Source: Psammoneis japonica
Lineage: Eukaryota
Direction: 5' to 3'
Length of the DNA stretch: 20,000 nt
Assembly: GCA_008632985.1 (NCBI GenBank)
Contig: QPGO01000266.1
Coordinates: 61,438 to 81,437, forward strand
Made by a program: the position numbers and the translations under genes. The notes under the pieces are model-generated. The model searched no databases. It was not told where the DNA came from and saw nothing but the letters and a program-made list of their open reading frames with translations. Below are positions 1 to 20,000 of the stretch, one piece after another. Position 1 is the first letter of the stretch. Every line of letters starts with the position of its first letter.

Positions 1-1565
1 GCAGAAATATCAACTCGAACTCTGTCAACATCTTTGTCCTTGTCAATAACGCGAATACCATTAAGACCTAGTATCGGACGGCCGCTTGCATCGAACCGTA
101 AAATATTGTCTGATGCTATTTGCAGAGGTACCAATAGCTTTGGTCTGTGATTTACGTTCAGCACACGGATTCGTTGTGTCGCAGCCAAGGAGGCACTTAA
201 CGTTGTACCGGTGTCATTACGTCCCCCGTATGCGATGACACGGAAATCAAAGGAGTCTAGGGGGAACTTCCAAATCAATTCCGTTGGCTTTCTGGCTCGG
301 AGCATTGAAATAATCATTTGGACAGAGACTCATAACGGACAGCTGTATGCGTGGCGTCTTCATCGATCCGGATGATCGACCCTGCTTCTAGGACTTTCGT
401 ACTATTGAAAGAAAAAAGTTTTCCATGCTTCGGAAGTGAAAGAATTTCCACTGCAGTTTGTCGCTCAGCCGTGGATGGAGTCACCCCACCAACCCACAGA
501 GCAACTCTACCGGTATTACCTTCTGGTAATGTGTACAACGTCGAGAGTGACGCAACCAAATCCAACGGTGCCACAGCGTCCACCTCTTCGAAGATCCTCT
601 CGCTTCTCTCAAAAGCTTCATCTTCCACCTCGTCCATAAACTGATCATAGATCGATACAGAGTGTATTTTTTCTGCGTACACATTGCGCTCGCCCCCAAC
701 CAGCTCGTGATCGCCACATGGAGAAAATAGCTGAATAGTGCGAGTCGCACACCAATTGCGGAAGCTGGAATTCAGGTAATCGCCAGAGATTTGCATCCCC
801 GAAACGGATTTCCCATTCAAAAACAAATCCATTTTGCTATTTCGAACAACAGGCGAGACAGTCGTAGTAGGCGAGGCAGTTAGAACGTTTGAAATTCGTT
901 GAATGGTGTTGGCAATCTTCTCTTCATCGTACCTTTCGCTGAACGACAAGACAACATGCTTTAAACTGAGAGTCGTGCTATCACAAATGAGAAGACGACG
1001 GCAATGTTTAGATGAACCAATTTCTGAATAGGCTAGTTCAAACATCCGCCCTGTGTAAGAAAGCGAAACATCCAAACCACCACATCCTCGGGGAACATCA
1101 TCCAAAATCTCGCTGGAATACGCCCCCCCGATGGTCAAAACAGGCCTCAAGGTGTCTACGATATCATCAAGTGTGAGAATCCCTAGCTCGATCGACCATC
1201 TCGAAGAAGGCCCTGATCTGACATGGTCGATGAGCGCCGTGATGTTGCTCCTCGATTCGATGACAGGAAAACTGAGACCTTCGTGTCCAACAACAAGTCT
1301 TATTCCTGATCCTAGGTTGCACCGAATGACGTCCTTTTCGTTCAAAACAAACCCATAAAAAAGGGATTTGAGTTCGTTTGGGAGAAAGACATCGCCGACA
1401 CTGTCTTCATCAAAGCAGAAGAAATCGTAAGTCTCTGATGGTCGCATTTTCATCGGTCCTTTGCTCCGATACAACAGCAGAAAGCGCGAGAATAAAAGCA
1501 GTTGTTCCGTTCGAATCGACTACACTACGTATAAAACACGGGTTAAACGTATCCCACGAGGCCAT
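1..1565 (-). CDS. Host-like LamG/concanavalin A-like domain protein followed by a cadherin/Ig-like repeat; three apparent +1 frameshifts, runs off the window start
   Basis: ORF 314..1474 has LamG-like motifs (TYDF, WSIEL, LKHVVLSF..MDLFLNG, KIHSVSIYD) and then SLPKHGKL..VRY. Shifted frames continue as DYFNAP.. and DSFDFRV..VLNVNHRP..IRVIDKDKDVDRVRVDIS to base 1. Candidate ATG at 1565 (MASWD..AFILALSAVVS). Domain names come from recalled motifs. Confidence 0.6.
837..932 (-). other. 96-nt in-frame spliceosomal intron
   Basis: Minus strand AG|GTACGA donor, CTAAC branch point (forward gttag 880-884), TAG acceptor. Removing it gives LKHVVLSFSESKMDLFLNG, a compact LamG-type motif. Confidence 0.75.
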
Positions 1566-2530
1566 GGTCAAGTGAGACCTCCCAAGCCGGGAGTGGGTCA
1601 AGTAGTGTCAAGTTTCATTTTTTATTTTTTATTTTTTGTAAACTGGTCACCCCCTCGTTTTTATGGCCAGTGGCTAAAATTTTGTGTAGACACATACCAG
1701 GTTTGTACGCTCGTATATTTTCTACACAGAAAATATTTACTATCCATTTTACTGAAGCTATAAATGTCATATCTGTAACGGTTTGCTGCTAAATAAAGTT
1801 CGTTAATATAAAATATGAGTTAGCCGGGGTAGGGCTAGTTGGTCGCGCACGTTTGGGTTCGATGCAGCCGTGCAACTAGCCATACCCTTCAGGAAGAGCT
1901 GTTGGTTGCGCGCGAGCAGAAGCAACAAAGCAAAGAACACGGCGTGGGTCAAAACGTTTTAAAATGACGCAACAACAAGCAGCGAGAAGAAACCCAACTT
2001 GACCCATGAATACAGCGCATACATATTGTCCAACCACTTCAATAGTATCTCGTATTCCCAGCTTGTAGATGAGGGGACGGCGTTCACGTTTCTCGCCATG
2101 GTGTTGTTGTGCGTTATCATGTTGTTTGCGCATGAAGAACACGGGATCTATTTATCCGATAGTCACTGTGTTTTGGTAATAGTAGATGTTTCACTATATC
2201 CAATCTGAAGTTATTTTTTGAGAAGCGCTTCGCGACAACCCTGTTCGCACCGTTAAATAGAATTTTTTTTGTGCAGATTCCAGAGTTCTTTCGGGGTGTT
2301 CTGTAAGATTTTTGAATTGTGGTATATATATTTTAAAGACAAAAGAAATTTCAATGATATGTAAAAGCTTCGGAGATGTACATAAATTTATCTTTCATGT
2401 AGATCACGTAGATTATGTACCGGCGGAAAATCCACCGCATGTCAACTCACTCAGCAGCAATTCTACGTATATTCTACTTACACCTCACACACGTACACCC
2501 ACACCTACACAGTCTAATAACCGTGCACTA

Positions 2531-4250
2531 AGTGCTCGAGATCAAGTTGCGCACAGACTTGGCCGGCCACAGAAGGAGGAAAGGTGGTGCTGGGTGGGGC
2601 GGGCACACGATTGATGGAAAAAGGTGATGGGATGATGGATGATGTGGGCAAGGAGGGGGGCAGCAGAGCAAGGTGACAGGCTTGTTGCTGTGGTGCAGCA
2701 AATGTTGAGTGTTGGGGCACTCTGTGGTTGTCCATTGATAAAATCAGAAAGAAGGGCCCAACGGGTGAGTGCCAGCTGCAGCACCATCGTGCCTCCTGGA
2801 GATCTGGAACATTTGGTGCAACCTGAGTTGTGGTGTGCAGCTTGAAGCCAGGGGGGGGGGGCAAGAGAGCAGATGGGACAAGAAATGGTGCACTGGCGCA
2901 CAGAAGACACAGCAGCAAGGCACCAGCTGGCAGCAAACACAGGTTTTGCTGTTGGAAAACAAAAGATTTGCACTCTCAGACAGCTCCATGGCTGGCATGA
3001 ATTGCAAGTTTCATGGAAGGAAGCTCAAGTGCCACGCAAGTTGCACTGTGTTAAAAGGTGAAGTCAAGTCACAAAGACTCTTGTGTTGAAAGCAATGTGA
3101 AACAAAAAGCAAAGAGGGGGGCCTCGCTGGGGTGGAAGAGAAGTCCCGGCTCGGTCCACTCGCCGGGACGAGCTGGTTGTTTGTTTTGCAATGGGCTCAA
3201 TTTTGACATCCAAGCAGTTGAGAGCAAACTCCAGATGCAGTTTTGACACAAAATGACCAGTTTCTCAAGGGATTTCCTTCACCCAGTTTGTGCTGTGGTG
3301 CAAGTGCTGTGTGGACAGCAGCTGCAGCTCGGGGGCCAGTGCCAGGTGGCAACCCAGATGCATCAGCTTGCTCTTCAAAAGAGCTGCAGTCACAACCTAA
3401 CAAAGCCAGATGGCAGTTGCCAGAAGCAGATCTCTTGCTTGAAGTGAAGCTGCTGCTGAGTTGTTTTTGCACATGAAGAAAAACAACAAGAAAGCTCATT
3501 TCCAGCTGTGCCAGTGGGGCTGCTGGGTTTGCAAGTGAGAACAGGGGTCGTGCTGCAAGCTGGGGTGAGCAAAGTCACTGGAGACAACTCAAACTGGGGT
3601 CATGTGCATGATCTTGAAAAAAGGGAACAGGAGCACTGGATCAAAAGAAGAGAAAAAAAAGCACTGCACAGGCAAGGGCACCCTGCCGAGGCAGCAAAAA
3701 GCATGCCAATTGGCTTTGCTCCCTAGATGCACCAGCTGCTCCCCTGCAAAAGAGTTTTGTTGTTGCTGTGTTTCTGTCTTGTGCTTGTCATCAAAGTTTT
3801 GCATGTGTGCCGGACAAGCTGATGATTTGAACAAGGTGATGAAGCAACACACAAACATGGAGTGTGTGCATGGAAGTGGGCCGCATTTTGTAAAGGAGTT
3901 TCTGGCAATGCAGAGCAGCAGAGAACCTGCTGTGCAATTTAAAACCACCCACAAATGAATCATGGTGAGGCACTGAAAAGCGTGACAGAGCAAACTGGCG
4001 AGGGAACAAACTGCAAAGCATGGTCATGGTGTGCAAGCTCAAAACTCCTTTTCTGTGTTCTGCATTTTCGATGCACTGGCCAAAGGACTGCTTCAATCTT
4101 GACATCTCTCAGGCTTTGCTTCTGACAAAGTGATGAGGATTCCAATGTTTGTGCCATTGGCTGCAGGCATCCCGTGGCCTGTCATTGTTTTGTCTTTCGT
4201 TGGTGCGAACACAGTGGCACAACACATGCACAGACAGATGGGTGTTGTGT
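2531..4250. other. TpA-depleted and CpG-depleted, CA/TG-rich tract; probably a hypermutated repeat relic of unknown family
   Basis: Hand count: about 6 TA and about 26 CG dinucleotides in 1,720 bp, against roughly 100 each expected at even base composition. ORFs in all frames are Cys/His/Gln-rich and nearly Tyr-free. The left flank (2461-2530) is TA-rich. Confidence 0.7.
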
Positions 4251-5350
4251 CATTTTTAAGGGGCTTAAGTGATTGTTTTATTGGGCTTATGTGATGTTTT
4301 GTCAGTGGGCATTGCATTTAAGTGTTTTGGCCAATCAGAAAACTCTTCCTAAGATTTGCGATATTTTCGTCAAAGGAAAAGAATAAATGAAATGCTCTTT
4401 CTTTTGCCCAAACAACAAATCACAATTAGCCATATCGAAACAAAGGCAATTTGTTGATGTCACATGTGTCATGACATGATGTGATCATATTTGTTCTATC
4501 ACTGCGTCACGATCATCACAACACTGTCGTGTAGCCCTCCAAAAACACGATTAGCGAACTTAGCGTCACACAATCATACTTCTATATTCACGAACAATTT
4601 TTACAACTCCTCACATGCGTTCTCTCATCAAAGAATACTTTTTCAGGTAGTGACGTCATTCGTGCTATTTTTTTAACAACTTCAATGCCTTTCTATCTCG
4701 AAAACGAGTCAGAATCCCCCCACTTTTCTTGTTTCCAAAACATCTCTTTTACTCAGCTGCATAACATGAGCGAATCATAAAAAAAATCTGTTGAACCATT
4801 TTGGAGATATTTCTGCTTTTATGTAATCGTGTGGTATGTCATGAGCTCTTTTTCTGAATTTTGGTCTCAACTTCACGATCGGTGTTCCATGCATGGCAAC
4901 GTACATCTGGGACACCAATAATCCAGGTGTCACACTAGCCGTCAAGATTTCTTGAAATAAAACCCGACATTTTCTCCCTTTAATCCAAGATTGTGCTGAT
5001 TTGACAAGTCAGCTTTTCTGAAATATTCAACAACAAACATCTATGTTCCTCAATTTAACTATTTACCCCCCCCCCCATCCGACAAGCCTTATGTGTATAT
5101 TTAATTCTATTTTAATTTCTGGATTGTGTGTTAATCAACTTTCTGGATCAAAATCGCCGCCTGTGTCCGTCAATCTAGATTCTAATTGTTTTCTCAATTT
5201 TCTCTCCCTGCCCATTCCATCCTTCCTCCCCGTCCATCCGCACGTTGTATCTCTATGTTTCTACCCTCACTGTGTCCCCAAGTGATTAATGCTGCACCCA
5301 CTGTTTACTTTCGATTCTCTTCTCAACTCCTTTGTCTATGTGCATCGGCC

Positions 5351-7831
5351 ATGTCGTCTGATGGTCTTGTTTGTCCATGGTGTAAACGAACCGGTTTCTT
5401 TTCCGAACGTGGCCTCAGCAGGCACATCGCAACTAACTGCCTCCGTTCCGCCATTTCCACCAAGTCTTTTAGTTGTCCTCGTTGCGGACAACGTGGATTT
5501 GACTCTGAAAACAACGTGCAGTATCACCTATCTCGGCACTGCACCGCAGCATCTGGTCTCCATCCCCCCTTGACACAGTTGCGCCGTACAACCCAACCAT
5601 CTTCTTCATCCGGCGGAACATCTCTTTCCTCTCATCCTCTGGATTCTGCCTCCGTCGGCTCCCTTGGATCCAACACCAACAAACCCAAATGTCCCCATTG
5701 CCGTGTTCCCTTTTCCAACATCGCCCTTCATCTACAGAAGTACTTGCCCTGCCGTGAAAAAGAGGAAATGTCCCTTCGCCTACATGCCGCATCTTCCACT
5801 GCCGCCCATGCACTTCCCCCTCCAGACGACGACCATGATGAATCACTGGACGACCATGATGATCCTGCTGGGTTTGGTTTCTCTGACGACAACCCCCCTC
5901 CTCCCCTCCCCGAAGTCCTTTGGAATCCAGCTCCATCTCTTCCCACACCAACGGACAATTCTTTTCCAGCTTGTCCTCCCTCTGCCGGAAGTGGACTACG
6001 CCCACCCTCCGTCAGACGCTCTGGTCGATTGCGTTCAGCTGCCAACTTTGCTGCCGCTAGTGCAGCCTCCCAAAATGTCCGCCGATTTGTTTTGTTTGCA
6101 GATGATGGTGTGTCCGCCCTTGGAGAGGACAGTCCTGTGGATGTTCCCGAGTTCATTGGAGCCGACCGTCGCGATGGTAGTTGTGGCCCCCCCTCAATTT
6201 CCCGTCCGATAGAAGATCCTGTTTCCTCCCTCGATCAACACAACCCTCTTGGCCCACCGCGTGATATCGCACCCGATGAGGATTTTGATGTACCTCCAGT
6301 CTACTCGCCCAGCATCGTACCCATGGTACGTTTGCTACATTTGTGTCGTTGGTCAGGTGTTGCAATTGACTTTGTCGACAAAGTAATGAGAATTTTGCAT
6401 GAAGAGCATGCAGAAAAAAGACTGGATTTGTCCAAGCCACCCATCACTACCGCCGTGGCGATGAAGCAACTCCTAGGGTTATTTCCCAATGTTCCTCTCC
6501 CCCGCACTGCCACTGTGATGCTAGAATGTAACAATCCAACACAGCAACAGAAGGATGGACCCAAATGTCGTTGCTCCCCACCTTTCCCGGTTTACAGTTT
6601 CACCGAGACCTTGCAGGATCTCTTCACCGAGCCAGTGTTCCGTGATCTTTCCAAGTTGCAGGTTAATCCAAATGATGTCTGGTCACCTTATGTGCCACCC
6701 CCCACCGACGGCGATTTGGAACCCAGCGCTAGCCCGGCTGACGGTTTTGAGATGTCGTTCCCGGATTATCCTGGGGACTGGCGATTGTCCACTCAAAGTC
6801 AAGACATGGGTGACGGCGAGTGGCAACAACGTTGCACCAATGCAAAGGAAACGGCATCTGATTTTCACGTTCACCTTGTTAATTACTCGGACAAGACCGG
6901 AGTTAATGCGGTCAATCCTCACGGGATGGAGCCTGTAATGTACTCACTTACCATGATTCGAGAGGACGCACGCCGTGACTACCGTTGTTGGCGTCCACTC
7001 GGATTCATACCCAATTTGGACAGGAAAGACAAGAAAGACAAGCTTGGGTACCTTGTTGTTGCCAACTGTCACCGCATTCTCAAGGAGGTCCTCCGTGGTC
7101 TGCTTCATTGCCAGGCGAATCCACCCATTGTTCGTGCAATAACAGGCACTCAACACCGCTATGTCAGAGCGGTGATACATTGCAACTCCCTGTTGGGGGA
7201 CATCCTCAATCAAGAACGCATTTGTGGAAGAGTCATGGGCCGAAGCAAGACCGAGAGGTTGTCTCACAACTGCCATGTGCCCTCCCACCGTTCTGATGAC
7301 CCCCTTCATGTCTGCCAATTTTTTAACCAAGCTTTCATAGAGTTGCTCACTGTAGCTGCATTGGGTCCGGATCCAGAGGATGACAACAGCCGTTGGCACC
7401 AGCATGTTAAAAGCGTTTCCCGGAAACATCGTACAATGACATCAAAAAAAAAGACTGAGACTGAGCTAGCTTCATCCCTCATTCGCCGAATGACTATATG
7501 CTCCAAAATTTTGAGAAAAGTGTTTGGACAGCACGCAGTGGACAATGCTTACTTTCCACTTAACATGGGCGACAACCCACGTGGTGTATTTGGCATGACC
7601 GTTGCTGACATAATGCATGTGTTGGAGGCGGGCATTGTCCCTCAAATGATGGAGGTAATCATTGGAGAGATGTCTGCCAAACAGAAAGAGGAATACGACC
7701 GTATTGCATCTGAGTTGTTCTGCACATCCCATTGTCGTCCAGGTCAGAGACGTGACTGCCCACGAATTCGAGTTAACGGGGGACTTTCCACACTCAATCA
7801 ACTTGCTAACATATCTAAAAGCACTGGTTAG
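5351..7831 (+). CDS. Plavaka-like (CACTA-related) DNA transposase with N-terminal zinc fingers, apparently 3'-truncated
   Basis: Three CxxC..H..C fingers (CPWC, CPRC, CPHC), a Pro/Asp-rich linker, then YSDKT..MEPVMYSL..WRPLGFIPNL, GDILNQERICGR, DIMHVLEAG and RDCPR..GLSTLNQL, matching recalled Plavaka-type motifs. First ATG is at 5351. Similarity stops near 7810. Confidence 0.7.
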   Translation: MSSDGLVCPWCKRTGFFSERGLSRHIATNCLRSAISTKSFSCPRCGQRGFDSENNVQYHLSRHCTAASGLHPPLTQLRRTTQPSSSSGGTSLSSHPLDSASVGSLGSNTNKPKCPHCRVPFSNIALHLQKYLPCREKEEMSLRLHAASSTAAHALPPPDDDHDESLDDHDDPAGFGFSDDNPPPPLPEVLWNPAPSLPTPTDNSFPACPPSAGSGLRPPSVRRSGRLRSAANFAAASAASQNVRRFVLFADDGVSALGEDSPVDVPEFIGADRRDGSCGPPSISRPIEDPVSSLDQHNPLGPPRDIAPDEDFDVPPVYSPSIVPMVRLLHLCRWSGVAIDFVDKVMRILHEEHAEKRLDLSKPPITTAVAMKQLLGLFPNVPLPRTATVMLECNNPTQQQKDGPKCRCSPPFPVYSFTETLQDLFTEPVFRDLSKLQVNPNDVWSPYVPPPTDGDLEPSASPADGFEMSFPDYPGDWRLSTQSQDMGDGEWQQRCTNAKETASDFHVHLVNYSDKTGVNAVNPHGMEPVMYSLTMIREDARRDYRCWRPLGFIPNLDRKDKKDKLGYLVVANCHRILKEVLRGLLHCQANPPIVRAITGTQHRYVRAVIHCNSLLGDILNQERICGRVMGRSKTERLSHNCHVPSHRSDDPLHVCQFFNQAFIELLTVAALGPDPEDDNSRWHQHVKSVSRKHRTMTSKKKTETELASSLIRRMTICSKILRKVFGQHAVDNAYFPLNMGDNPRGVFGMTVADIMHVLEAGIVPQMMEVIIGEMSAKQKEEYDRIASELFCTSHCRPGQRRDCPRIRVNGGLSTLNQLANISKSTG

Positions 7832-8303
7832 TCCCGCTCAGTTTCGATTCTCGGAATTGGAACAAACCCTTCTGAATGACAGAGCCTCAATTTGGTGTCA
7901 AGGCTGTTTTCTATGCTAAACGGGGCCAGATGCACTGGCGGGGGACAATGCCCAGATGGATTATTGGTCAACACTGCAGGTTGAGTCGGGGGTGGAATGT
8001 CATCGGGAGAGAAGTACGATGTATCGGACGGAAAAGAGATTCGTTGGTTCCATTTCGGTAACGTGGCCTAACAGGTAAGGGATTTGGTATGATTCTTCGG
8101 GGTGGGATCATTTTGAGGTTGTTGTTCTGCAACGGGAATGACAAGGCTACGGAAGACAAGAAATAGAGTTACCCAAACAATGTCTGTTCGCTGCTCAACA
8201 TGAGTTGATCAGCGACTTGGACAAGATTCGGGAGAATGTGGTTTGCTGTGGGAGAGGTACTTTATATCACGATACTGTACAGGCTAGTATTAAGTGTATA
8301 AGT

Positions 8304-8498
8304 AAAAAAGTGGCACCAAAGGTGTGCATTACCATGTGTGTGTATTAACAAAAAACTGATACCAAATTCTTCTGTTAACAAATATGTTTAATAATAGAAA
8401 GGTGACACCGAATTACTTTGTTAACAAATAGTTCTAATAATAAAAAAGTGATACCAAATTACTATGTTAACAGACAGGTGTATTACTAAAAAAGTGAT
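8304..8498. repeat. Diverged tandem repeat, exact 46-bp period, about 4.2 copies
   Basis: The aaaaaagTGataccaaatt..tgttaaca unit has its TG at 8311, 8357, 8403, 8449 and 8495. Confidence 0.85.
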
Positions 8499-8701
8499 GG
8501 TTTGTTTGTGGTGCGGAATGTACGGTGGATGGAAGCTTTTGCTTTGTGTCTGCCGCTGTGGTGATGTGAAAATATCTCACATCATCACTAACAGAATTGT
8601 GAGTAACAAAATTGTTTTCTATGCTTTTGAGATAGCTAGGATGACCGATATAATGAGATCCTTCAGTAAACAGGATCGACGAAGATCATATCACACGACG
8701 T

Positions 8702-8761
8702 GACTATTTGCAAAAAAAATGTCTGTGATGCACCCGACAGATAGACTACCGTTGTCAAAAC
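8702..8761 (+). repeat. Copy 1 of a diverged 60-bp direct repeat split by the Gypsy insertion
   Basis: gactattt..aaaaaaa..acagatagact.ccgttg.caa.ac aligns without gaps to 13767-13826. Confidence 0.85.
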
Positions 8762-9192
8762 TGCAGTATGCCTCGCTACTGGACAACACGGCGAGACCGT
8801 GCATAAGCCTCTTGTACGTGGCAACGTAGCATTGTTAACGCGTACCTGGGAAGCACGACCACAGGAGGGCGTGGCTCTAGGTCTTAGGCAATTCCAGAAG
8901 GATGCTAAGAGAGCATCCGTGTGAAGCACACTAGCCCGTCGTCTGGCCCACGATGGTAGCGTGATTCCACACGATGACATCACTCGTGCATGGCGCGTGA
9001 TGGCTTGATTCGCACGATCCATAATGCGAACGCACGATCGATTTGATACGATCCAAATGCGAACGAATAGGGATTTGGCAAGATTCCCTATTCGCACGAT
9101 CCCACTTTCTCTACTCTAAACTAGCTCATAATTTTCACAACGACAAAGTCGTAACACATCTTCTTTTCAGCGCCTAGCACATACATAGGGCA
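8762..9192 (+). repeat. Gypsy 5' LTR
   Basis: TGCAGTATG...CATAGGGCA; 427/431 identical to 13323-13753 by manual comparison. Confidence 0.97.
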
Positions 9193-9253
9193 CAGTAATA
9201 TTACTCCCGCATATTGTGTGAGGTAACGAAATCTACAGAAACGAAACTACGAA

Positions 9254-10426
9254 ATGTTGGTAGGACCGACAAATCTCAAAATGACCATGAAGAAGCAGAT
9301 TAAGCCGCCGATTCCGTTCGCACGGCCGGAGAAGAAAGAGCTACAGCAGGGCGAGCACCAGACGTTCAAACTACGTAACAACCCTGCTGATCCGGATAGT
9401 CCAACGCATGAGATGGGCATCCCGTACCTTTCTACGGCTACATGCAAGACACTCCTAATCTTTCTACGCAACGTGGATCGCATGCATGAAGGACAAAACA
9501 TGACGACCGGGCCAGCGAAATTTGCCCTTATGCGTGACCTACTACAGGGCGATGCTCTGACGTCATTCAACAATGCCGCTGACAAGCAGGCATCCCAAAC
9601 CAACGCTACGTACGCAGCATGCGTCGCGAAGCTAAAGGAAAGTATCTTCCCACATGGGGCGGTACCATTGCAGAAGCATTATCTGAGGCGCTTCATGCGC
9701 AAGCCCGCAGAGGTTTCTACTCGTGACTATGTCACGAGGGCTGTTGAAATTAACGGCTGTGTCTCTCAGTTTCCACCCGTGACGGAGGATGGAGAAGCAC
9801 CGGCACCATTACCTAATGACAAACTATGTGATATGTTCGAGTACGGTGTGCCGAACGCATGGCAGAAGTTCATGACGCTACAGAATTTTGACCCGTTGGC
9901 GCATACTATCGCCGAATTTGTACAGTTCTGGGAGCGCATCGAGCAGGTCGAGCTTGCCGAAGGTAACCTGGACCAACATGCTAAGATTCCACGTAAGCGG
10001 GGACGTAGAACGGACAATCCTGAGTCGTTGATCACGACCCAATGGAACACCCAGAAGTCGTGTATGCTACACGGGACTAACTGTGGACATCATACGGAGG
10101 ATTGCCGTCAGCTCAAGCACCACGTGAAACGTGTCAAGACTGGACATTCCAATAACGGAGGCAGCAAGCCTAATACAAAACCTCGGAATGAGGAAGACAT
10201 TAACACTCTCATCGGATCGAAGGTCGAGGAGTTCTTTGCCAACGCTCAAAAAAAGCGCAAGGCACGCGAGGAGGAGCTTAATCACTTCCGCGACCTCAAC
10301 TTAAGTGCTCGTTCAGTACGTCTAACGACTGTACCGTTAAATTTCGGTTACCAGAATTATCCGAAACTGCAGAACTTGAACATACCGTCCACGTACACAA
10401 CGGAAAGTTGGGCAAGTACGATATGA
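9254..10426 (+). CDS. gag: Gypsy Gag; true C-terminus lost near 10310, the remainder is out-of-frame read-through
   Basis: PPIPFARP, QKHYLRRFMRKP, EYGVPNAWQ and zinc knuckle CMLHG...HHTEDC, located directly after the 5' LTR. Confidence 0.88.
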   Translation: MLVGPTNLKMTMKKQIKPPIPFARPEKKELQQGEHQTFKLRNNPADPDSPTHEMGIPYLSTATCKTLLIFLRNVDRMHEGQNMTTGPAKFALMRDLLQGDALTSFNNAADKQASQTNATYAACVAKLKESIFPHGAVPLQKHYLRRFMRKPAEVSTRDYVTRAVEINGCVSQFPPVTEDGEAPAPLPNDKLCDMFEYGVPNAWQKFMTLQNFDPLAHTIAEFVQFWERIEQVELAEGNLDQHAKIPRKRGRRTDNPESLITTQWNTQKSCMLHGTNCGHHTEDCRQLKHHVKRVKTGHSNNGGSKPNTKPRNEEDINTLIGSKVEEFFANAQKKRKAREEELNHFRDLNLSARSVRLTTVPLNFGYQNYPKLQNLNIPSTYTTESWASTI

Positions 10427-13283
10427 TTATTGGACGTGACATTCTGGAGACACAAGGCATTGACATTGTCTTCTCTAAACAAATGACAGAGTGGCCATTG
10501 GTCAATGGAGAAGTGCCAATGAGGCACGTAGATGCTACGGTAAAAACCTCCTTCTATCTTCAAGATCCAGAAGCCTTATCTTCGGAAATCTTCGGAAACC
10601 GACTGGATTTCACGTATTTTAGACGCCAAGTGCACGCCGGCCTGCCTCGAGGACATAACGCGAGAGGCAATAGGACTTTCTACAGTTCAACAAAACGACC
10701 TTTTGGCACTATTGAAATGCCATGAGTCCTTATTTGATGGGACATTAGGAGAATGGAAGGGAGAACCCTACCACATCCAACTCAAGGAGGGTGTAGAACC
10801 ATGCCACGCTCGTCCGTATAAAGTACCTCGTGCATACGAAGAAATGCTACGTAAGGAAGTAGAACGCCTAGTGCATATCGGTGTTCTCAAACGCGTTAAC
10901 CGATCCCAATGGGCAGCTCCATCATTTATCATACCGAAGAAAGACTTAATGGTACGCTTTATTAATGATTTCAGAGAGCTGAATAAACGGATCAAGCGAT
11001 TGCCTTATCCGATTCCTCATATCCAAGATATGCTACTTGAGCTCGAAGGCTTTATGTGGGCTACATCGCTGGATTTAAACATGGGCTATTATCACATCTG
11101 ATTGGATGCTGATAGCAAGAAGCTCTGCACGCTCATCTTCCCATGGGGCAAGTATGAGATGCAGGTATTGCCCATGGGATTATGTAATTCGCCAGACATT
11201 TTCCAAGAACGCATGTCAGGCTTATTTGAAGATCTATCGTTCGTTCGAACGTACTTAGATGACCTTCTCGTCGTGACGAAAGGCACCTATGAAGATCACC
11301 TCAACAAACTTGAAGAAGTTTTATTGAGGGTCCAGAAAGCAGGACTAAAAGTTATCGCAACTAAATCTCATTTCTGTCAAACCCAATTAGAATACTTGGG
11401 TTATCTGGTCAACAGAGACGGAATACAACCAATACCTAATAAAGTCGACGCCATTAAGCGAATCGCGACCCCAACCAATAAACGCGACCTACGGTCATTT
11501 ATTGGTGTGGTGAACTACTACCGTGACGCGTGGATTAGACGTTCTGAAGTCTTGGCTCCGCTAACACGACTCGTAAGCGAGACTGTTAAGTGGGAGTGGA
11601 CGTCCGTTGAAGACGAGGCGTTCGAAACCGTTAAACGGGTGATATCGGATGATATCTTATTATCACATCCTGATTTTAATAAACCCTTTGAGATACATAC
11701 CGATGCCTCTAAATATCAATTGGGAGCAGTTATATCCCAAGATAATAAACCTGTCGCCTTTTACAGCAGAAAGCTTAATAGTGCGCAATTAAATTATACA
11801 ACAACGGAGAGAAAATTGCTCGCCATTGTGGAGACGTTGAAAAAATTTCGAACGATTCTCCTTGGTCATCGTATAATTATATATACTGATCATAAAAATC
11901 TTACGTACAAAGTATTCAATACCGAGCGCGTTATGCGCTGGCGGTTAATATGCGAAGAATACGGTCCCGAATTACGCTATGTTAAGGGTACCCATAACTT
12001 AGTCGCTGACGCTCTTAGTCCTTCGGCTAGCACCCAGCTTGCCTTCCAAGGCCAATCCGGATGTAAAAGACACTCCATCGAGTCGTCCTTTGCATGAAGC
12101 TTTTAATGCAGACGCGCAAGACGACATATCTCTGCCTATTAGCTTCAAGCGCATTCAAAAAGCACAACAAAAGGACAAGCACCTACTCTCACGAGCTAAG
12201 GACTCGTCCGACTACTCCATTCGCGCGTATCGTGGGGGAGGGTCATCACGACAGTTAATCTGTCATAAGGACAAAATCGCAGTACCACAGTCATTGCAGG
12301 TTCCGCTAACTGAATGGTACCACGAGACACTGTGTCATCCAGGTGAGACACGTACGGAAATATCTATTGCCCAGCACTTCTACTGGCCTAGTATGAGGTC
12401 TATGGTGCATTCTACGTGCGTTAAGTGCGATCGATGCCAGAAGACAAAACGCCGAACGCAGCATTATGGGAAGCTACCAGAAAAGGTCGCAGAGATAATT
12501 CCATGGGAGACTCCATGCATGGATGTGACAGGGCCATATAAAATTCAAAGATGCGGAAAGGACACTTTGCAATTATGGGCAGTCACAATGATTGACCCAG
12601 CAACCGGGTGGTTCGAGATTGAAGAAGTGTCTACGAAACGCGCAGACGTCGTAGCAAACGTCGTGGAACAAACGTGGCTATGCAGACATCCGTGGCCAAC
12701 CCAGGTGGTTTATGACCGTGGGACAGAATTTATGGCAGAATTTAGCCAGATGATTAAAAATGACTATGGGATTTTGAAGAAACCCATAAGCAAGCGGAAT
12801 CCACAGGCAAATGCCATGGTGGAACGTGTGCACCAGACACTTGGTAACATGGTACGTTCCTTTTCAGTACAGGATATGGAACTGGACGAAGATGACCCAT
12901 GGAGTGGCATCCTCTCCGCAGTAGCCTTCGCTATTAGAGCTACGGTACACACGACCACGCGTGCAAGTCCCATGCAATTGGTCTTCGGACGTGATGCGGT
13001 TTTATCTATTGCCCATCGTGCTAAGTGGAAGTACATAGAAACCAGAAAACAGAAGCTTATTCACTTAAATAACAAGCGTAAAAATCAGAAATGCAAGGAG
13101 CACCAACACACCGTAGGGCAATTGGTACTTATCAAACAGGAACAATCCTCTAAATACGGTTCTGACAGCCATGCAGGGCCCACCAGAGTTGTCCGTGTAT
13201 ATGACAACGGCACGTTGCGTATCCAGAACGGAGCGCTGATAGATACGTACAATCTACGGCAGATTGTACCCTATCACCAGTAA
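10312..13283 (+). pseudogene. pol: Gypsy Pol (half protease, RT, RNase H, integrase), disrupted
   Basis: YDMIIGRD (PR C-half); WAAPSF, DFRELN, LDLNMGYYHI, LPMG, YLDD (RT); TDAS, YTDHKNL, ADALS (RNase H); H..LCHPG..CxxC, YDRGTEF, NPQANAMVERVH (IN). Lesions: 10-bp duplication 10578-10597, TGA at 11099-11101, 4-nt insertion at about 12020-12023. Confidence 0.95.
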
Positions 13284-13313
13284 GACATCCTGTCACTTAA
13301 CCGCCCTGATCAT

Positions 13314-13320
13314 GGGGGAG
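13314..13320 (+). other. Polypurine tract of the Gypsy element
   Basis: GGGGGAG ends 2 nt before the 3' LTR. Confidence 0.85.
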
Positions 13321-13322
13321 TG

Positions 13323-13753
13323 TGCAGTATGCCTCGCTGCTGGACAACACGGCGAGACCGTGCATAAGCCTCTTGTACGTGGCAACGTAGTATTGTTAAC
13401 GCGTACCTGGGAAGCACGACCACAGGAGGGCGTGGCTCTAGGTCTTAGGCAATTCCAGAAGGATGCTAAGAGAGCATCCGTGTGAAGCACACTAGCCCGT
13501 CGTCTGGCCCACGATGGTAGCGTGATTCCACACGATGACATCACTCGTGCATAGCGCGTGATGGCTTGATTCGCACGATCCATAATGCGAACGCACGATC
13601 GATTTGATACGATCCAAATGCGAACGAATAGGGATTTGGCAAGATTCCCTATTCGCACGATCCCACTTTCTCTACTCTAAACTAGCTCATAATTTTCACA
13701 ACGACAAAGTCGTAACACATCTTCTTTTCAGCGCCTAGTACATACATAGGGCA
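13323..13753 (+). repeat. Gypsy 3' LTR
   Basis: Direct repeat of 8762-9192, followed by the TSD AAAC. Confidence 0.97.
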
Positions 13754-13766
13754 AAACATCACATGG

Positions 13767-13826
13767 GACTATTTACGAAAAAAACACCCGTGGTGCCCAC
13801 AACAGATAGACTGCCGTTGGCAACAC
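13767..13826 (+). repeat. Copy 2 of the 60-bp direct repeat (69-bp period in the reconstructed empty site)
   Basis: Ungapped alignment to 8702-8761. Confidence 0.85.
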
Positions 13827-13952
13827 ACATTTAGCGAGAAAGCCGTTTTCATTGCAAAGTAATGGGTGCGGACTTTCGCTATATTGGGTCTGTTCCACTT
13901 AAAGAAAAAGACTGGGTACCAATTGATTTGGCAGAACAGGCAACTTCAGAGA

Positions 13953-14726
13953 ATGGCGCGGAAGTGTTCTGTGAACGGATGCCGGAAATTTGCCCGTTGG
14001 CCGACAACATTATGCCAGAAACATGGCAAGTTACTAACACGCCTGGGTGAAATGAAATCTCATGTCGTCAAGAGCAAGAAGGTGGGGTCCAAAGAAAGAG
14101 AGCACCAGGAAAGAAAAAAAGGCTACTTACAAAAATTCAAAACACCACCACCCCTGCTCAACAAGATAACAACGCTTGCAAACAAGGCACCAAGTAGGAA
14201 GGGAGAAAAGGAAGGACACCGTTTTGTCGGTGAGTTCGCCATTAACAAAAAGGAAAAGGCGGAAGGTATTGGGTTGGCAGAAAAAATGTTGGAGTTAATT
14301 CCTGGCTTTCCCCTGGTGGGTGATTTAAGCAGAAAGATGTCCCGGCACACAGCAGTAAACGCTCCTGCTTCAAGTTCAAGATCTAACTTCTGGTCAAAGG
14401 GGGAAATTCATCGCGATTACGCGGAAACAAAATTATTACCTGGTAACAAATTTTTCACCATGTTTCTGTTCCTCGATGACACGACGGAGCACAATGGTGC
14501 AGTGGAGACATGGCCGGATAGTTGTGAGGTAACATTGAATGAGAAGGAACGCGAAAGACAATTGGTTAGGTTGGGTTTGGAAAAACAATTACTGGTTGGA
14601 GAAGCAGGCACTGCATTTGTTTTTGACGCAAGAATCATGTTGCACCGAGCTTTGCCTAACAAAATGAATTCGGATCGAAGGAACATGGCATGTCTAGTCC
14701 ATAATTTCGACACAGTAAGTGTGTGA
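13953..14726 (+). CDS. PhyH-like 2-oxoglutarate/Fe(II) dioxygenase with an N-terminal CxxxGC..LCxxHG zinc finger and basic linker
   Basis: MARKCSVNGCRKFA..LCQKHG; Lys-rich linker; IHRD (HxD), FLFLDD..NGAVETWPDS, GEAGTAFVFDARIMLHRALPN (distal His) and a downstream Arg (SDRR). First in-frame ATG at 13953; ORF uninterrupted. Confidence 0.78.
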   Translation: MARKCSVNGCRKFARWPTTLCQKHGKLLTRLGEMKSHVVKSKKVGSKEREHQERKKGYLQKFKTPPPLLNKITTLANKAPSRKGEKEGHRFVGEFAINKKEKAEGIGLAEKMLELIPGFPLVGDLSRKMSRHTAVNAPASSSRSNFWSKGEIHRDYAETKLLPGNKFFTMFLFLDDTTEHNGAVETWPDSCEVTLNEKERERQLVRLGLEKQLLVGEAGTAFVFDARIMLHRALPNKMNSDRRNMACLVHNFDTVSV

Positions 14727-15679
14727 ACATAGTAAGCGTGTGAACAAGTGTGTGTTGGAATACAAAACTAGCGAAGTAGTAAGTTGACATAGGTACAAAG
14801 TGGGTTTGTGTAGAGGGCTAATAAACAATGCATTGCTTACATAGACGACAGTTACATCACAAACAAAGTGAAATTGCAAAGTTACCCACTTTTGGCAGGC
14901 TTGAATTTACGTTTGATGTCAGACCCTAGGTCGTTCCTAGTGGAATGCCTAGTCTCCACGGCATCGTCTCTTTTCTTGGTGCACTTGTGAAGTAGGTGCC
15001 TGTCGACACCGCCTCCCCACGATAGATTGTCTGGACAGGCAGGAACAAAGAATGCTTCATGCCTCCATTTGTGCGTATAAACACAAAACATCATGTCCAG
15101 TGAAATAACAATGGCACCTTCAGGACACTCGTTGGACAGCTTCTCCTTGAGTTGGTTCTGTGGACGCGTTCCAGCCCCAGGTGGGACTCCGTGTGACATT
15201 GGGCCCGTAGAATTCTACGTGCGAGCTCCGTAGTACGAGAATTTAATTAATGGATATATTTATCTTCAACATCAAATAAACGGCCAAGTTTGTGGCACAA
15301 TTATGCCTCTCACCACTCGACGTTTTTGCAAATGCGCCTGCCCTATGCGATTCTTAAGACATTAAAGAATCGCGCTGTAACAAAAAATGTCAAAAGTTGT
15401 TGGACGGATCGCTCAATAAGTGTACCGTAAAATGACACAAAATGTCGAAAAAATCACGTAGAAATCTACGTGCGCGACATACGACGTGATTCAAAAAACT
15501 GTCGATGTCACAGTTCAGCAGTACGAGGTCCCACCTAGACCTGGAACGCGTCTGTGTCGCGTTGTTGTCAAAAAGCATTCGCCCATTGTAGTTATTGAAA
15601 AAATCTTTAAGTTGTTCAGACGGTACAACCGACGAACAGCATCGTCTTCAGAGAGGAAGTCCTGATTGATCAGGGCAGG

Positions 15680-15955
15680 TGACAGGATTTGAACAGGATT
15701 TAGGTGCGCGCGAAATATCGCGAGCTGTTTAGTTTCCCGCGCACAGTTTTGTGTGCTTTAGTTCTGCACGTTTGCACGCGATGTAGTTTCCTTTCGAGCC
15801 ACAAGGCTCACAAAAATAATAACAATAGCCCGATTATACCGACTTACACGTCTTTCGGCTCCTGTAACGGTCTCTGAGCGGAGACTCATCTGCCATTTAG
15901 ACAGCAGTAAGGAGTTGTTGTTTGAATTCTTGCCATTTGCCTTCATTTTCTGTCA
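15680..15955 (+). repeat. Candidate Copia 5' LTR (276 bp)
   Basis: Bounded by the inverted repeat TGACAG(GATTTGAA)...(TTCATTTT)CTGTCA and followed immediately by a tRNA-complementary 11-mer. The second LTR is outside the window. Confidence 0.65.
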
Positions 15956-15966
15956 GATTAACAGTC
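15956..15966 (+). other. Candidate primer-binding site complementary to the tRNA-Asn(GUU) anticodon arm
   Basis: GATTAACAGTC; its reverse complement GA-CT-GTT-AA-TC has anticodon stem-loop layout. Confidence 0.6.
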
Positions 15967-16785
15967 TTGCTCATTGTCAACCCATTGAGCAACCGCCATC
16001 ATCGTCGTTGATTTACCGACGACGCCATTTCAATTCTGCGTGGACCTCCGTATATGTTCTACGTACATCGGCAAGTCTACGCGCATTCAATGCCAGGCAT
16101 CGGCAGGAAGTTAACGTCACCGTCAAGTCTCCTTACCGCTGGATATCTGGATTGATTATACTACCTTTTATCGCTGAAGACATACATTCAACGGTCACAT
16201 CCAAGTCTATCCTTGATCCTCATCCCTCAATATACCCATTCATCGGTTAACGGTCAAGAACCCTACACATTCAAGGCTCTTCGTCGCTGAGGACACACAT
16301 ACACACATATCTTCACGGCCAAGAACTTGTACCCACTCTTTGGACTACGGCTTTGCTGCCACTCTACAAGCACACAGAGTCCATTGTACCTGATCTACCC
16401 CGGACTACTGGTGCTCTACAGTTCTGCCAGGTCTACGAGGATGACTGTGAGAGCAAGTAGCCGTGATTACAGCCTACGTTGGGGCGAGGGTGTTTTCCCG
16501 CGTTTGTTCGTTCGTCCACAGCGCCTAACGCCTACGTCAACTGGCCAGCCTGATCGGGAAATCCAACCGATATAAAATAAGAACGGTTCGGGGGTCTTGT
16601 CCACCTCTAGTCAGCTTACCTGCAGGGGTTTACAACCCGCTACTCCGCTCATAATCAACCCAAAGCACCACTAGCTGCGGGTTCGGACGTGCCGGCACAA
16701 CTCTACGGACCGGATAGGAAGTTTAGCACTTAACAACGAACGGGATAGCACAGCCCGGCGACTTCTGATTTTAAGGTAGTTCAAG

Positions 16786-16820
16786 ATTTCAAGTCAAGTC
16801 TATTTCAAGTCAAGTCTATT
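16786..16820 (+). repeat. 16-bp tandem repeat (ATTTCAAGTCAAGTCT x2) in the Copia leader
   Basis: Direct reading; more CAAGTCT copies lie near 16124, 16202 and 16834. Confidence 0.85.
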
Positions 16821-16891
16821 CTCACCCAAGTTTCAAGTCTACCTTCGCTTCCCAACAAGAATTGCTTGTCCTGACACCACTTTTGTCTACC

Positions 16892-19800
16892 ATGGTTCTC
16901 ACTCGTCAGCAACAAACTGATGGTTTCAAGCACGTTGTTGGAACCGTGCTTGCCCAAGGTGCTGGGAGCCCTCTTCGTTTGGCTTTGACCCAAGACGGCA
17001 CGGACTCGTGTCAAGAACTGTTCACGTTCATGCCGTCCCAAATCGACTCGCTTGAGTACGATAACGGCACTAATGTGATCCCTTTGCCCCGCGGTTATAA
17101 GAACATGTTAGCAGCTCTAATTAGTCTGTACATTGTCAAAGCACACGAAGGTCTTGACATTGCCAATGACTCCTCGTTGTCCACGCATGATGAGTTCCTT
17201 GCCTACCGCCTCAGCCCCGACTGCATGTCTTCTGTGTCCGTCGGCAGCTCGCCCCTCGCACCTCCGCATGTCACCAACCCGACCAAGGCACGCGACCCGG
17301 TACGAGACTTCAAGCGAGGCATCAAGCGTGACCCCACCGCTTTCACGGCTCTCAAATCCGACAAGCAGTGGCACACTTGGCACACCTCACTTGTGGCACA
17401 AGCCCGTGCCCAAGACGTCGAGTGCATTCTAGACTCGTCGTACAAACCGACCAGCCCCGAAGACAAACTGCTCTTTGCTGAACAGCAAAAGTACATGTTC
17501 GCCGTCTTTGAACGCATCCTTCTCACCAACAAGGGCAAGGCTCTCATTCGCGAAAATGTGGGGTCTTCTGACGCCCAGACCGTCTACCGCGCCTTGTCTG
17601 AGCATGCGCTCGCCTCCACCCGCGCATCTGTCGAGTCCTCCACCTTGCTCACGTACCTTACCACCGCACGTCTTGGTGATGGTACTTGGAAAGGTCCGAC
17701 CCACGGGTTCATCCTTCATTGGCAAGATCAGTTGCGCAAGTACGAGGCACTCATCCCGGCCAGTGACCACTTCTCTGAAGGACAGAAGCGCGTCATGCTC
17801 GAGAATGCCGTACATCCTGTCGAGGAACTTCGTGCTGTCAAGAACCAAGCTGATCAGCATCGTATGCAGAGTGGCAAGAGCCTCACATACGATCAATGTT
17901 GTGGCTTGCTCCTCTCCGCGGCGGCTCAGTACGACAGTACGTTTCAACCCAAGACGACACCTCGAGCTCCCCAACGCGCCATATACGCACACGACGTCTA
18001 CTCCGAGGAACCGTCCGATGATGTGTTCTACGACATTGACAGCGACATTGACGTCCTTCAGGCTAATGCTGCCTACACCCGTGGTCCCAGCCTCACCGGT
18101 GACCAATGGAAACGTCTCCCTCCCGACCACCAACGGATTTGGGATTCGTTGCCCCATTCCTCCAAGGCGATCATCCTTGAGCATTCTCATCCACCTCCCC
18201 GCAACCCGCGAGCCAGCAACTACCATGAGTCCGTTACGGCCAACCTTCACGACCAACGCCTTGGGAGTGACGGTGATGTCAACTTGTCCAACACGACTCC
18301 TGCTGACTCTGGTGACCCCGCTCCAAATGTGGATGCCACTTCGGATAATCCCATCCTGGCGCACCTCACCAAGCGCAAGCCACTGCCACCCGGTGATCTG
18401 CAACGCCTGTTGTCTCCTAACCAAGCCCCCAATGCTAGTCGACCGGGGCCATCCGCCGCTCCCTCTACCTCGCCAGCTCCCACCAATGACATAGAACTTA
18501 ACGGCCGCACTTACCGCCGCGTTAATAACCACAATGTCATTTACTCTGCCTCTGCTCATCGCTCCACACGCACTGGTGCTCTAGTCGATCGTGGGGCCAA
18601 CGGCGGCATTGCTGGCAACGACGTTCACGTCATTGCACGCACCTCTCGCCAAGTCGACGTTCAGGGCATTGACGACCATCAATTGGTGGACATCCCTGTT
18701 GTCACCGCTGGTGCCGTCATTGAGACACAGCGTGGTCCCGTCATCGCCATCCTCCATCAGTGCGCATGCACGGGAAAGGGCAAGACCATTCATTCCTGCG
18801 GCCAGCTCGAATGGTACAAACAGGATGTCAACGATCGCTCTGTCAAGGTGCCCAACGGCTTGCAACGTATTGCCACCCCTGATGGCTATGTCATCCCAAT
18901 TGACATCAAGGGCGGCCTGCCTTATGTTGCCATGCGACCTTACACTGATGCCGAATGGGACACCCTGCCCCATGTCATCCTTGCCGGTGATGACACATGG
19001 GATCCTTCTGTCCTCGATCACTCTGTCACTGACGACGACCAGTGGTACGATGCGATCTCTGACCTACAGGACGATCCCACTGCCAACCTATTTGATGAAT
19101 ACGGCAACTACCGTCATCGTGTTGTTGTCAACAAGACCATCATGTCCGCCCCCTTGTCTGCCGATCACGCGTCCGCCCTCGATGATCACCTCATTCCGAA
19201 CGACGACGTGTTCTACGAGTGTCATCTACACGCGATTGACCCCAAGGACGATGACGTTCCGCCCCCGGAGCGCACTGTGCAGCCCAAGGACCCCCCCTTC
19301 GAGTCTCTTCGGCCTTGCTTTGGCTTCCTACCTACCGACACGGTCCGTCGTACTTTTGACTGCACCACGCAGTACGCCCGCATGCCCGCCGGTACACACC
19401 TTAGGAAGGCCTACAAATCGCCCAACCCCGCCCTTAATGTGCACCGCCGCAACGAGCCTGTCGCCACTGACACCGTTTATGCCGACACCCCGGCCGTCGA
19501 CTCTGGTTGCACCAGCGCCCAACTGTTTGTTGGCACCGAGTCTACTGTCACTGATGTCTACGGCACCAAAACGGACAAAGAGTTTGTCAACACACTCAAG
19601 GATCAGATCCGTGAGCATGGTGCCCCATCCAAACTCATTAGCGACCGTGCTCAAGTTGAGATCAGCAACAAGGTGCTCGGGATCCCACGAGCCCTCTTTA
19701 TCTCCAGCTGGCAAAGTGAGCCTCACCAGCAACACCAAAACTTTGCCGAGCATTGACACCAGACCGTGAAGCACATGGCAAACACTGTCATGGATCGTTT

Positions 19801-20000
19801 CAGTTCGCCTGCCCACACATGGCTGCTGGCGCTCATGTACGTGTGCTTCATACTCAACCACACAGCGTCCCCACGTCTCCACTGGTGCACACCCCTCGAG
19901 ACTCTCACTGGCTCCACCCCGGACATCAGCCCATTGCTTTGCTTTCACTGGTGGGAACCCGTGTACTTCCACCTCGATGACTCCGTTTGGCCATCCGAAT
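16892..20000 (+). pseudogene. Copia Gag-protease-integrase polyprotein with a premature stop at 19754-19756
   Basis: MVLTR start; FKRGIKRD, QQKYMFAVF, FILHWQDQLRKYE (Gag); ALVDRGANGG (PR); VATDTVYADTPA, LISDRAQVE, WQSEPHQQHQN (IN). The frame continues past the TGA as HQTVK..WLLALMYVCFILNH..GSTPDIS..WEPVY. Confidence 0.92.

Follow-up and report, generated by a model that had tools for sequence, protein, structure and literature searches.

The question raised by a 20,000-nt stretch of Psammoneis japonica contig QPGO01000266.1 (hereafter the window, a single one, on which the whole analysis is based) is whether the transposable elements nested in it carry the record of a mutational process directed against the dinucleotide TpA. 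The elements concerned are a Ty3/gypsy and a copia-like long terminal repeat (LTR) retrotransposon, a Plavaka-like DNA transposon and a mid-repetitive element here termed the TpA desert. A reading of the sequence against consensus motifs (the original prediction) had listed 20 codons in the three transposons lying one TpA>TpG or TpA>CpA step from the expected residue, and had proposed a DNA-level A>G process that runs opposite to fungal repeat-induced point mutation (RIP) and serves in genome defence. We find a TpA-specific signature in both LTR elements, in the DNA transposon and in the desert, a repeat without a Pfam match, and both the sequence context and the direction of the change are observed in the polarised counts.

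An excess of transitions at TpA

In place of that consensus, we used alignments of the gypsy integrase (IN; 43 homologues, 50-68% identical), its RNaseH domain (49 homologues), the copia polyprotein (65 homologues, 43-57% identical) and the Plavaka-like protein (54 homologues, 25-44% identical). Protein searches returned no near paralogues, the best identity being 68% for gypsy IN, ~50-60% for copia and 44% for the Plavaka-like protein; scans for loci reached at most ~70% in metagenome contigs, and gave none in genome or viral contigs. Over the 575 columns with at least 80% conservation among the homologues, every possible non-synonymous transition was scored as an opportunity and every single-transition departure of the window as an event, with 32 departures needing a transversion or two steps excluded. 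The count is therefore exhaustive per opportunity, in place of hand-chosen sites.

By this count, TpA>TpG/CpA changes occupy 13 of 112 opportunities, versus 2 of 448 for all other A/T>G/C transitions (Fisher p=3e-8). Changes in the opposite, RIP-like direction (CpA/TpG>TpA) are found at 3 of 168 opportunities (p=9e-4 versus the TpA class), those of CpG to TpG/CpA at 11 of 149, and the remaining G/C>A/T transitions, at neither CpG nor CpA/TpG, at 3 of 280. Both the predicted direction away from TA and the enrichment of A>G changes at TpA are borne out by these figures. The excess is robust to the threshold: it persists at 70% conservation, and so it does at 90%, with 12 of 86 TpA opportunities versus 0 of 344 for other A/T>G/C, and at 60%, with 19 of 168 versus 12 of 650. 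No effect of TpC is seen, other T>C changes numbering 0 of ~198 at 80% conservation. The TpA excess is beyond what chance or selective picking of sites would give.

The events are spread over elements and strands. The IN region contributes 6 of 39 opportunities (including L159P, I164T, Y217H, Y357H and Y378H), the copia ORF (open reading frame) 5 of 39 (Y346C, I613V, Y634C, T708A and L942P), RNaseH 1 of 30, and the Plavaka-like ORF 1 of 4 (3 of 9 at 60% conservation, with Y628C, Y858C and V841A as its TpA changes). Seven are TpA>TpG and six TpA>CpA, so both strands are affected, as had been claimed; on the coding strand, four of the five copia events are A>G and five of the six in gypsy IN are T>C. 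As 7 of the 13 lie in codons other than Tyr (L>P twice, I>T, I>V twice, T>A and I>M), the excess is no oddity of Tyr. Clusters co-ordinated by strand (five A>G followed by two T>C in copia, and mostly T>C in gypsy) were considered as a further feature, but so few changes do not warrant such a claim.

CpG decay accompanies these changes as a separate process, as the original prediction had allowed. In copia there are eight G>A changes, all at CpG, and a CGA>TGA transition has turned R965 into a stop. Of the 16 CpG transitions counted in copia when conservation is set at 60%, two are C>T and the other 14 CpG>CpA, G>A with respect to the coding strand; this skew arises mostly because the non-synonymous opportunities are unequal (57 vs 22). 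The caveat that ordinary G>A changes also occur was likewise apt, E371K and E381K being G>A at GpA.

All 20 peptides singled out by the original prediction are present, in frame and correctly placed, and their supposed polarity fared unevenly against the alignments. Strong backing, meaning a consensus residue in at least 80% of the homologues with the window codon one TpA>TpG/CpA step away, was obtained for seven: L159P (12514), I164T (12529) and Y217H (12687) in gypsy IN, Y346C (17898), Y634C (18762) and L942P (19686) in copia, and Y628C (7068; Tyr in 51 of 52 homologues) in the Plavaka-like ORF. Three have moderate backing, namely V81A (12280; Val in 27 of 40), Y966H (19757; Tyr in 36 of 56) and Y858C (7758; Tyr in 30 of 50), and two are weakly backed, Tyr being only the plurality residue at C636 (18767; 30 of 65) and H985 (19814; 26 of 52). 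Two lack backing: in the LICH motif Cys is itself the commonest residue (25 of 39 homologues) and the His column is variable, while the LRPCFG column holds F, N, L or K and no Tyr. The remaining six (9356, 9407, 9758, 10631, 10721 and 10802) lie in gag, the protease (PR) or the N-terminus of the reverse transcriptase (RT), which no homologue spans. The alignments further yielded TpA events beyond those listed, namely Y357H, Y378H, I260M, I613V, T708A and I351V.

Controls on related elements

Two controls were run on relatives from elsewhere. The same procedure was applied to metagenome loci over the 405 residues of copia homologous to those of the window. Of 57 such loci, 24 aligned to the query over part of its length only and were set aside; removal of four of the other 33, which had more than two stops, left 29 relatives. 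In the TpA class the window has 4 events at 19 opportunities, against 21 at 571 for the 29 relatives pooled, none of which has more than three. The other control counted singleton differences by parsimony at the DNA level in six groups (25 loci) of metagenome copies 86-99% identical to each other. Here CpG sites carry 177 singletons in 4259 (4.2%), whereas TpA sites, with 54 in 5045 (1.07%), barely depart from other A/T sites, with 213 in 22716 (0.94%). In related copia families from other organisms CpG decay is present and the TpA effect absent; the counting method does not create one.

Dinucleotide composition, the TpA desert and the LTR pair

The ratio of observed to expected TpA (O/E) forms a gradient across the elements, from 0.06 in the desert through 0.43-0.5 in the Plavaka-like and copia ORFs to 0.8-0.97 in gypsy. 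The value is 0.43 for the Plavaka-like ORF and 0.48 for the copia ORF, in which CpG stands at 0.95, TpG at 1.47 and CpA at 1.27; because CpG is close to expectation, this TpG/CpA surplus does not come from loss of CpG. When the window copia is set among its 33 metagenome relatives, it shows the lowest TpA O/E (about 0.47) and the highest GC content (0.57 vs at most 0.53).

The extreme of the gradient is the desert, which holds 6 TpA in 1727 bases (2530-4256) and where, over 2650-4250, TpA O/E is 0.06, CpA+TpG 1.79 and CpG 0.22. Its sequence is complex, not of low complexity, its ORFs match no Pfam family, it is not recognisably a retroelement, and its summed contig depth is ~900-1150 compared with 31 for single-copy DNA. 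Its edges are sharp: the preceding 519 bases hold 44 TpA, and beyond its far end the density is normal again. As a side effect of composition, TAA and TAG are almost absent from it and 100-160-codon ORFs occur in all six frames; in TpA deserts of this kind, automatic annotation would be likely to predict genes that do not exist. The host gene at the left end of the window has a TpA O/E of 0.58-0.69 and TpG/CpA values of 1.06/1.09, i.e. no TpG/CpA surplus.

The two LTRs of the gypsy element, which are 99% identical, differ at four positions (8778, 8830, 8992 and 9178), all of which are TA<->TG/CA differences, although the LTR holds 33 CpG; the chance of four out of four falling in this class is 0.004. 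These differences arose at or after integration. Together with the changes in a DNA transposon (Y628C and Y858C), which the original prediction had also noted, they support a process at the DNA level, as it had held, or at any rate one that works on elements already integrated.

Comparison with known hypermutation systems

The closest precedent is presented by mutation-accumulation lines of Bigelowiella natans. According to a preprint (10.64898/2026.01.13.699255), an integrated nucleocytoplasmic large DNA virus (NCLDV) and a virophage insert account for 231 of the 302 nuclear mutations in these lines. With a single exception these were A>G or T>C changes, and the 230 in question all lie at TpA. 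The rate in inserts was ~1000x background, in some lines only; and the process was confined to particular inserts, while the rest of the genome mutates at the ordinary rate and with an AT bias. The preprint also describes TpA-poor, CpA+TpG-rich clusters and coding sequences in the B. natans genome that are enriched in RT and DDE domains, proposes an ADAT2-like deaminase, and states that ADAR- and ADAT-type editing favours a 5' U; diatoms are not mentioned in it. The likeness to the window lies in A/T>G/C change at TpA yielding TpG or CpA according to strand and, it would seem, in a long-term loss of TpA and gain of CpA+TpG that comes in separate blocks associated with RT and DDE domains. By the compositional cut-offs of that preprint, which were set for another genome, the 1-kb segments 3001-4000 (0.08/1.74) and 4001-5000 (0.41/1.53) pass, and 7001-8000, 18001-19000 and 19001-20000 come near. 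There are also differences. The elements affected here (LTR retrotransposons, a DNA transposon and a repeat lacking Pfam domains) are present in many copies, whereas those of B. natans are single-copy viral inserts; the near-absence of G/C>A/T change reported there has no counterpart here, where CpG decay runs alongside (17 of 597 G/C>A/T vs 15 of 560 A/T>G/C); the evidence here is historical, there it consists of de novo mutations; and the lineage here looks to be another one, as the only named copia relatives are diatom proteins and the host gene has a single intron in 1.6 kb.

The novelty claimed by the original prediction accordingly no longer stands in that form: A/T>G/C hypermutation at TpA only, in integrated foreign DNA, was already reported in 2026 for the chlorarachniophyte B. 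natans. Among the papers listed in searches on transposon hypermutation and on TpA in diatoms, we found no description of it. The accessible text of an account of diatom LTR elements (PMC2806351) deals with CpG methylation only. The window would present not a new kind of process but another case of a very recently described one.

Fungal RIP is comparable as a context-specific transition hypermutation that degrades repeated DNA, but RIP makes CpA>TpA and adds stops, whereas here the CpA/TpG>TpA class stands at 3 of 168 and long ORFs survive. It was ruled out by direction, TpA being depleted and the GC content of copia above that of all 33 relatives. Deamination of 5-methylcytosine at CpG yields TpG/CpA too and is present here, as seen from the 11 of 149 CpG opportunities versus 3 of 280 at other G/C sites outside CpA/TpG and from the CpG O/E of 0.22 in the desert; however, it can neither remove TpA nor explain the copia surplus at a CpG O/E of 0.95. 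CpG decay explains part of the changes and none of the TpA loss. The APOBEC3 and ADAR systems of animals also drive hypermutation of mobile elements by deaminases, and ADAR favours a 5' U, but their substrates are the cDNA or RNA of retroelements alone, and a single strand of it, whereas in the window changes are seen on either strand and in a DNA transposon too, and the LTRs diverged after integration.

Proposed mechanism and alternative explanations

Taken with the B. natans precedent, these observations suggest that the integrated transposable elements would be exposed to a process turning 5'-TpA-3' into TpG or CpA, i.e. one that makes A:T>G:C changes at TpA only, on either strand, atop ordinary CpG decay, and that would be of the same kind as the TpA-restricted hypermutation of B. 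natans. We consider it probable that such a process acts on the elements of the window. Its agent would be enzymatic, most likely an ADAT2/TadA-type adenine deaminase whose product, inosine, is read as G. In the natural tRNA substrate of such enzymes the target A34 is always preceded by U33, and this would account for the restriction to TpA. Its aim may be silenced or foreign DNA rather than the whole genome, and adenine deamination, targeting of repeats and a role in defence are predicted on this basis. A broader proposal, which we put forward more tentatively, is that TpA-directed hypermutation, of which the only reports to date come from mutation-accumulation lines of a single chlorarachniophyte, also occurs in a diatom-like alga, on LTR and DNA transposons after their integration and to near-saturation (TpA O/E 0.06), and might represent an old and widespread editing-based genome defence of the SAR lineage (stramenopiles, alveolates and Rhizaria) beside CpG methylation.

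Several points weigh against this interpretation. There are only 13 polarised events, from one window and from non-synonymous sites only; their polarity depends on relatives 25-68% identical, and the differences in the desert and between the LTRs are polarised by no ancestor. G/C>A/T and A/T>G/C changes are in total nearly equal in frequency (17/597 vs 15/560), because CpG decay runs alongside. The host gene is the sole non-repeat stretch available for comparison (1.7 kb) and is judged by composition alone. Among the differences from other copies that were listed, six places (6981, 8149, 9048, 11654, 17302 and 17742) have TpA in the window where all aligned contigs have TpG; mutation of the other copies would fit, while a simple majority rule reads these places as TpG>TpA in the window. 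In four of them (8149, 9048, 17302 and 17742), across different repeat families, the window reads tAcg and all aligned contigs tGcg. A TadA-like hot spot at TACG was considered and rejected, since TACG is not depleted in the elements of the window (61 vs 70 TGCG).

At the places where other copies differ from the window, its base is A and theirs G at 518, T>C at 485, C>T at 210 and G>A at 179; this tally decides nothing, because direction is ambiguous without contexts. The differences listed (40 of 1634) include 17 of the A>G type, and at seven of these a TpA of the window stands against TpG elsewhere, compared with an expectation of 16% (p=0.011); six of the seven are the places named above. 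None of the 40 is at a site of the original prediction.

A context bias of the whole genome, by which TpA would mutate everywhere and become visible in transposons as these are free of selection, would dispense with both targeting and defence. The gradient across the elements could then simply be one of age, and the window offers no polarised changes in unique DNA; set against this are the ordinary or high TpA of the host gene and of the repeat adjoining the desert, the sharp edges of the latter and the confinement of the B. natans process to particular inserts, and we regard such a bias as unlikely. The modified base might instead be thymine, if a dioxygenase of the TET/JBP type made 5-hydroxymethyluracil (5hmU) at TpA in silenced repeats. 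5hmU mispairs with G to give T>C, and because TpA is palindromic this route would yield CpA as well as TpG, an outcome identical to that seen. Transposons of dinoflagellates are marked by 5hmU (PMC11572971), a product of TET/JBP enzymes which, according to earlier work cited there, is found preferentially in place of T in the dinucleotides TA and TC. This route is nevertheless quite improbable given the lack of a TpC effect, with no other T>C change among ~198 opportunities, and of a TET/JBP gene in the window, whose 2-oxoglutarate (2OG) dioxygenase ORF (13866-14726) is PhyH-like.

Editing of A to I in transposon transcripts or cDNA, fixed by retrotransposition, would agree with the 5' U preference of ADAR and ADAT (as stated in the B. 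natans preprint) and with the A>G bias on the coding strand of copia (4 of 5). It is difficult to reconcile with the T>C bias in gypsy IN (5 of 6), with Y628C and Y858C in a DNA transposon, with LTRs that differ at TpA and with a desert that is no recognisable retroelement, and of the alternatives it appears the least probable. The chances of an artefact, be it uncorrected long-read errors, mis-polishing in repeats or biased choice of sites, are only slightly better. Such an error would account for the lack of any aligned contig supporting the window base at the listed places where the other copies agree in full (100% share), and only 36% of the sampled words of gypsy occur in the contig set X1; a TAG>TGG or TAC>TGC error of nanopore reads would also be of this kind, but searches on nanopore errors and the passages of PMC5816649 did not yield it. 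Yet ORFs of 3138 and 2646 bases are free of frameshift, the unique part of the window matches with 0 substitutions, half of the contig depth has the 2-bp frame change at 12019 in common with the window (see below), and 3235 of 21185 aligned contigs are at least 99% alike; the intact ORFs, the shared frame change and these contigs together make an unpolished long-read artefact unlikely. Context-dependent error, moreover, would strike both LTRs alike, and biased choice of sites is countered by the exhaustive count per opportunity with its controls on 29 relatives and 25 loci.

Should the proposed TpA-directed process extend genome-wide, mutational defence by A:T>G:C change at TpA would not be peculiar to one chlorarachniophyte. 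Such a defence would mirror both fungal RIP and APOBEC editing, and the window would hold a second, independent, historical record of it, left in ordinary transposons of a different algal lineage. The process would then account for repeats of such genomes that are poor in TpA and enriched in GC, and for their spurious long ORFs. It would also make TpA O/E against CpA+TpG O/E a simple marker for finding and dating targeted DNA, and render the search for the enzyme (an ADAT2-like deaminase or a thymine dioxygenase) tractable in transformable diatoms.

Organization of the locus

The features of the window are collected in Table 1. A contig of set X1 matches 1-1695 with 0 substitutions at a depth of 31, and an RNA-like X2 contig skips 837-932 (CT..AC, i.e. 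GT..AG on the minus strand); the ORF of this host gene has no Pfam match. The rest of the window after the host gene consists of nested repeats. Summed contig depth is ~900-4800 over 2002-8671, 12000-26000 over gypsy and ~60000-250000 from 14675 on; as these depths lie far above the 31 of unique DNA, the elements belong to multi-copy families. The repeat before the desert has a depth of ~4800 and is covered over 2007-2528 by an X2 contig, which diverges from the window beyond that point.

Table 1. Features of the window, with positions counted from its first base
Feature	Position	Strand	Remarks
Single-copy expressed host gene	1..1700	-	Composition control; ORF 314-1474, intron 837-932
TpA-dense repeat adjoining the desert	2007..2528	.	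44 TpA in 2011-2529
TpA desert, mid-repetitive element	2530..4256	.	Nearly all TpA and most CpG lost
Plavaka-like DNA-transposase ORF	5186..7831	+	881 aa, uninterrupted by stops; match to Pfam Plavaka at E=4e-5, below gathering score
Gypsy 5' LTR	8762..9192	+	431 bp, TG..CA ends
Gypsy (Ty3/gypsy) internal region	9193..13322	+	Pfam RVT_1, RT_RNaseH, Integrase_H2C2, rve
Gypsy 3' LTR	13323..13753	+	
PhyH-like 2OG-Fe(II) dioxygenase ORF, in repeated DNA	13866..14726	+	Pfam PhyH E=3e-4, 2OG-FeII_Oxy_3 E=3e-3, both below cut-off
Copia-like (diatom CoDi-type) gag-PR-IN ORF	16862..20000	+	One frame to the window end; one stop, 19754-19756

X1 contigs join ~2042 to ~15163, and 15552 to 2047; from these joints it follows that a 13-kb block (2043-15162) is missing in other copies. 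It seems that the flank of a copia-family element was split by a composite insertion. Terminal inverted repeats or a target site duplication were sought for the block 2043-15162, and none were found.

Within the block, the gypsy element is flanked by the target site duplication AAAC (8758-8761 and 13754-13757) and has frames for gag (9254-10426), PR/RT/RNaseH (10408-12097) and IN (12039-13283), broken by an in-frame TGA at 11099 and by frame changes. About half of the family depth (2646 of 5093, eight contigs) carries two additional bases, CG, after 12019, by which RT-RNaseH and IN come to share one frame again; a frame change so common implies that a frameshifted subfamily reached high copy number. 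An RNA-like X2 contig with a depth of 161 joins 9249 to 9958, omitting 708 bases of gag with CG..GC ends; this skip is a transcribed, internally deleted gypsy variant and not a canonical intron.

Before the gypsy insertion, the PhyH-like ORF stood ~1 kb downstream of the Plavaka-like ORF. Its depth is ~4500 and its DNA is repeated ~150-fold. No relative in the PDB was found by sequence, and a pattern HRD...H...R was read in it by eye. Fungal KDZ/Plavaka transposons travel with TET/JBP dioxygenases, and the PhyH-like ORF may be the cargo of the same DNA transposon as the Plavaka-like transposase.

The homologues of the copia-like ORF are ~50% identical to it, the only named ones being diatom proteins at 40%. 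Upstream of this ORF, the segment 15342-16008 has the highest summed contig depth of the window, ~254000 as compared with 31 for unique DNA, and is probably the LTR of the copia family together with many solo LTRs.

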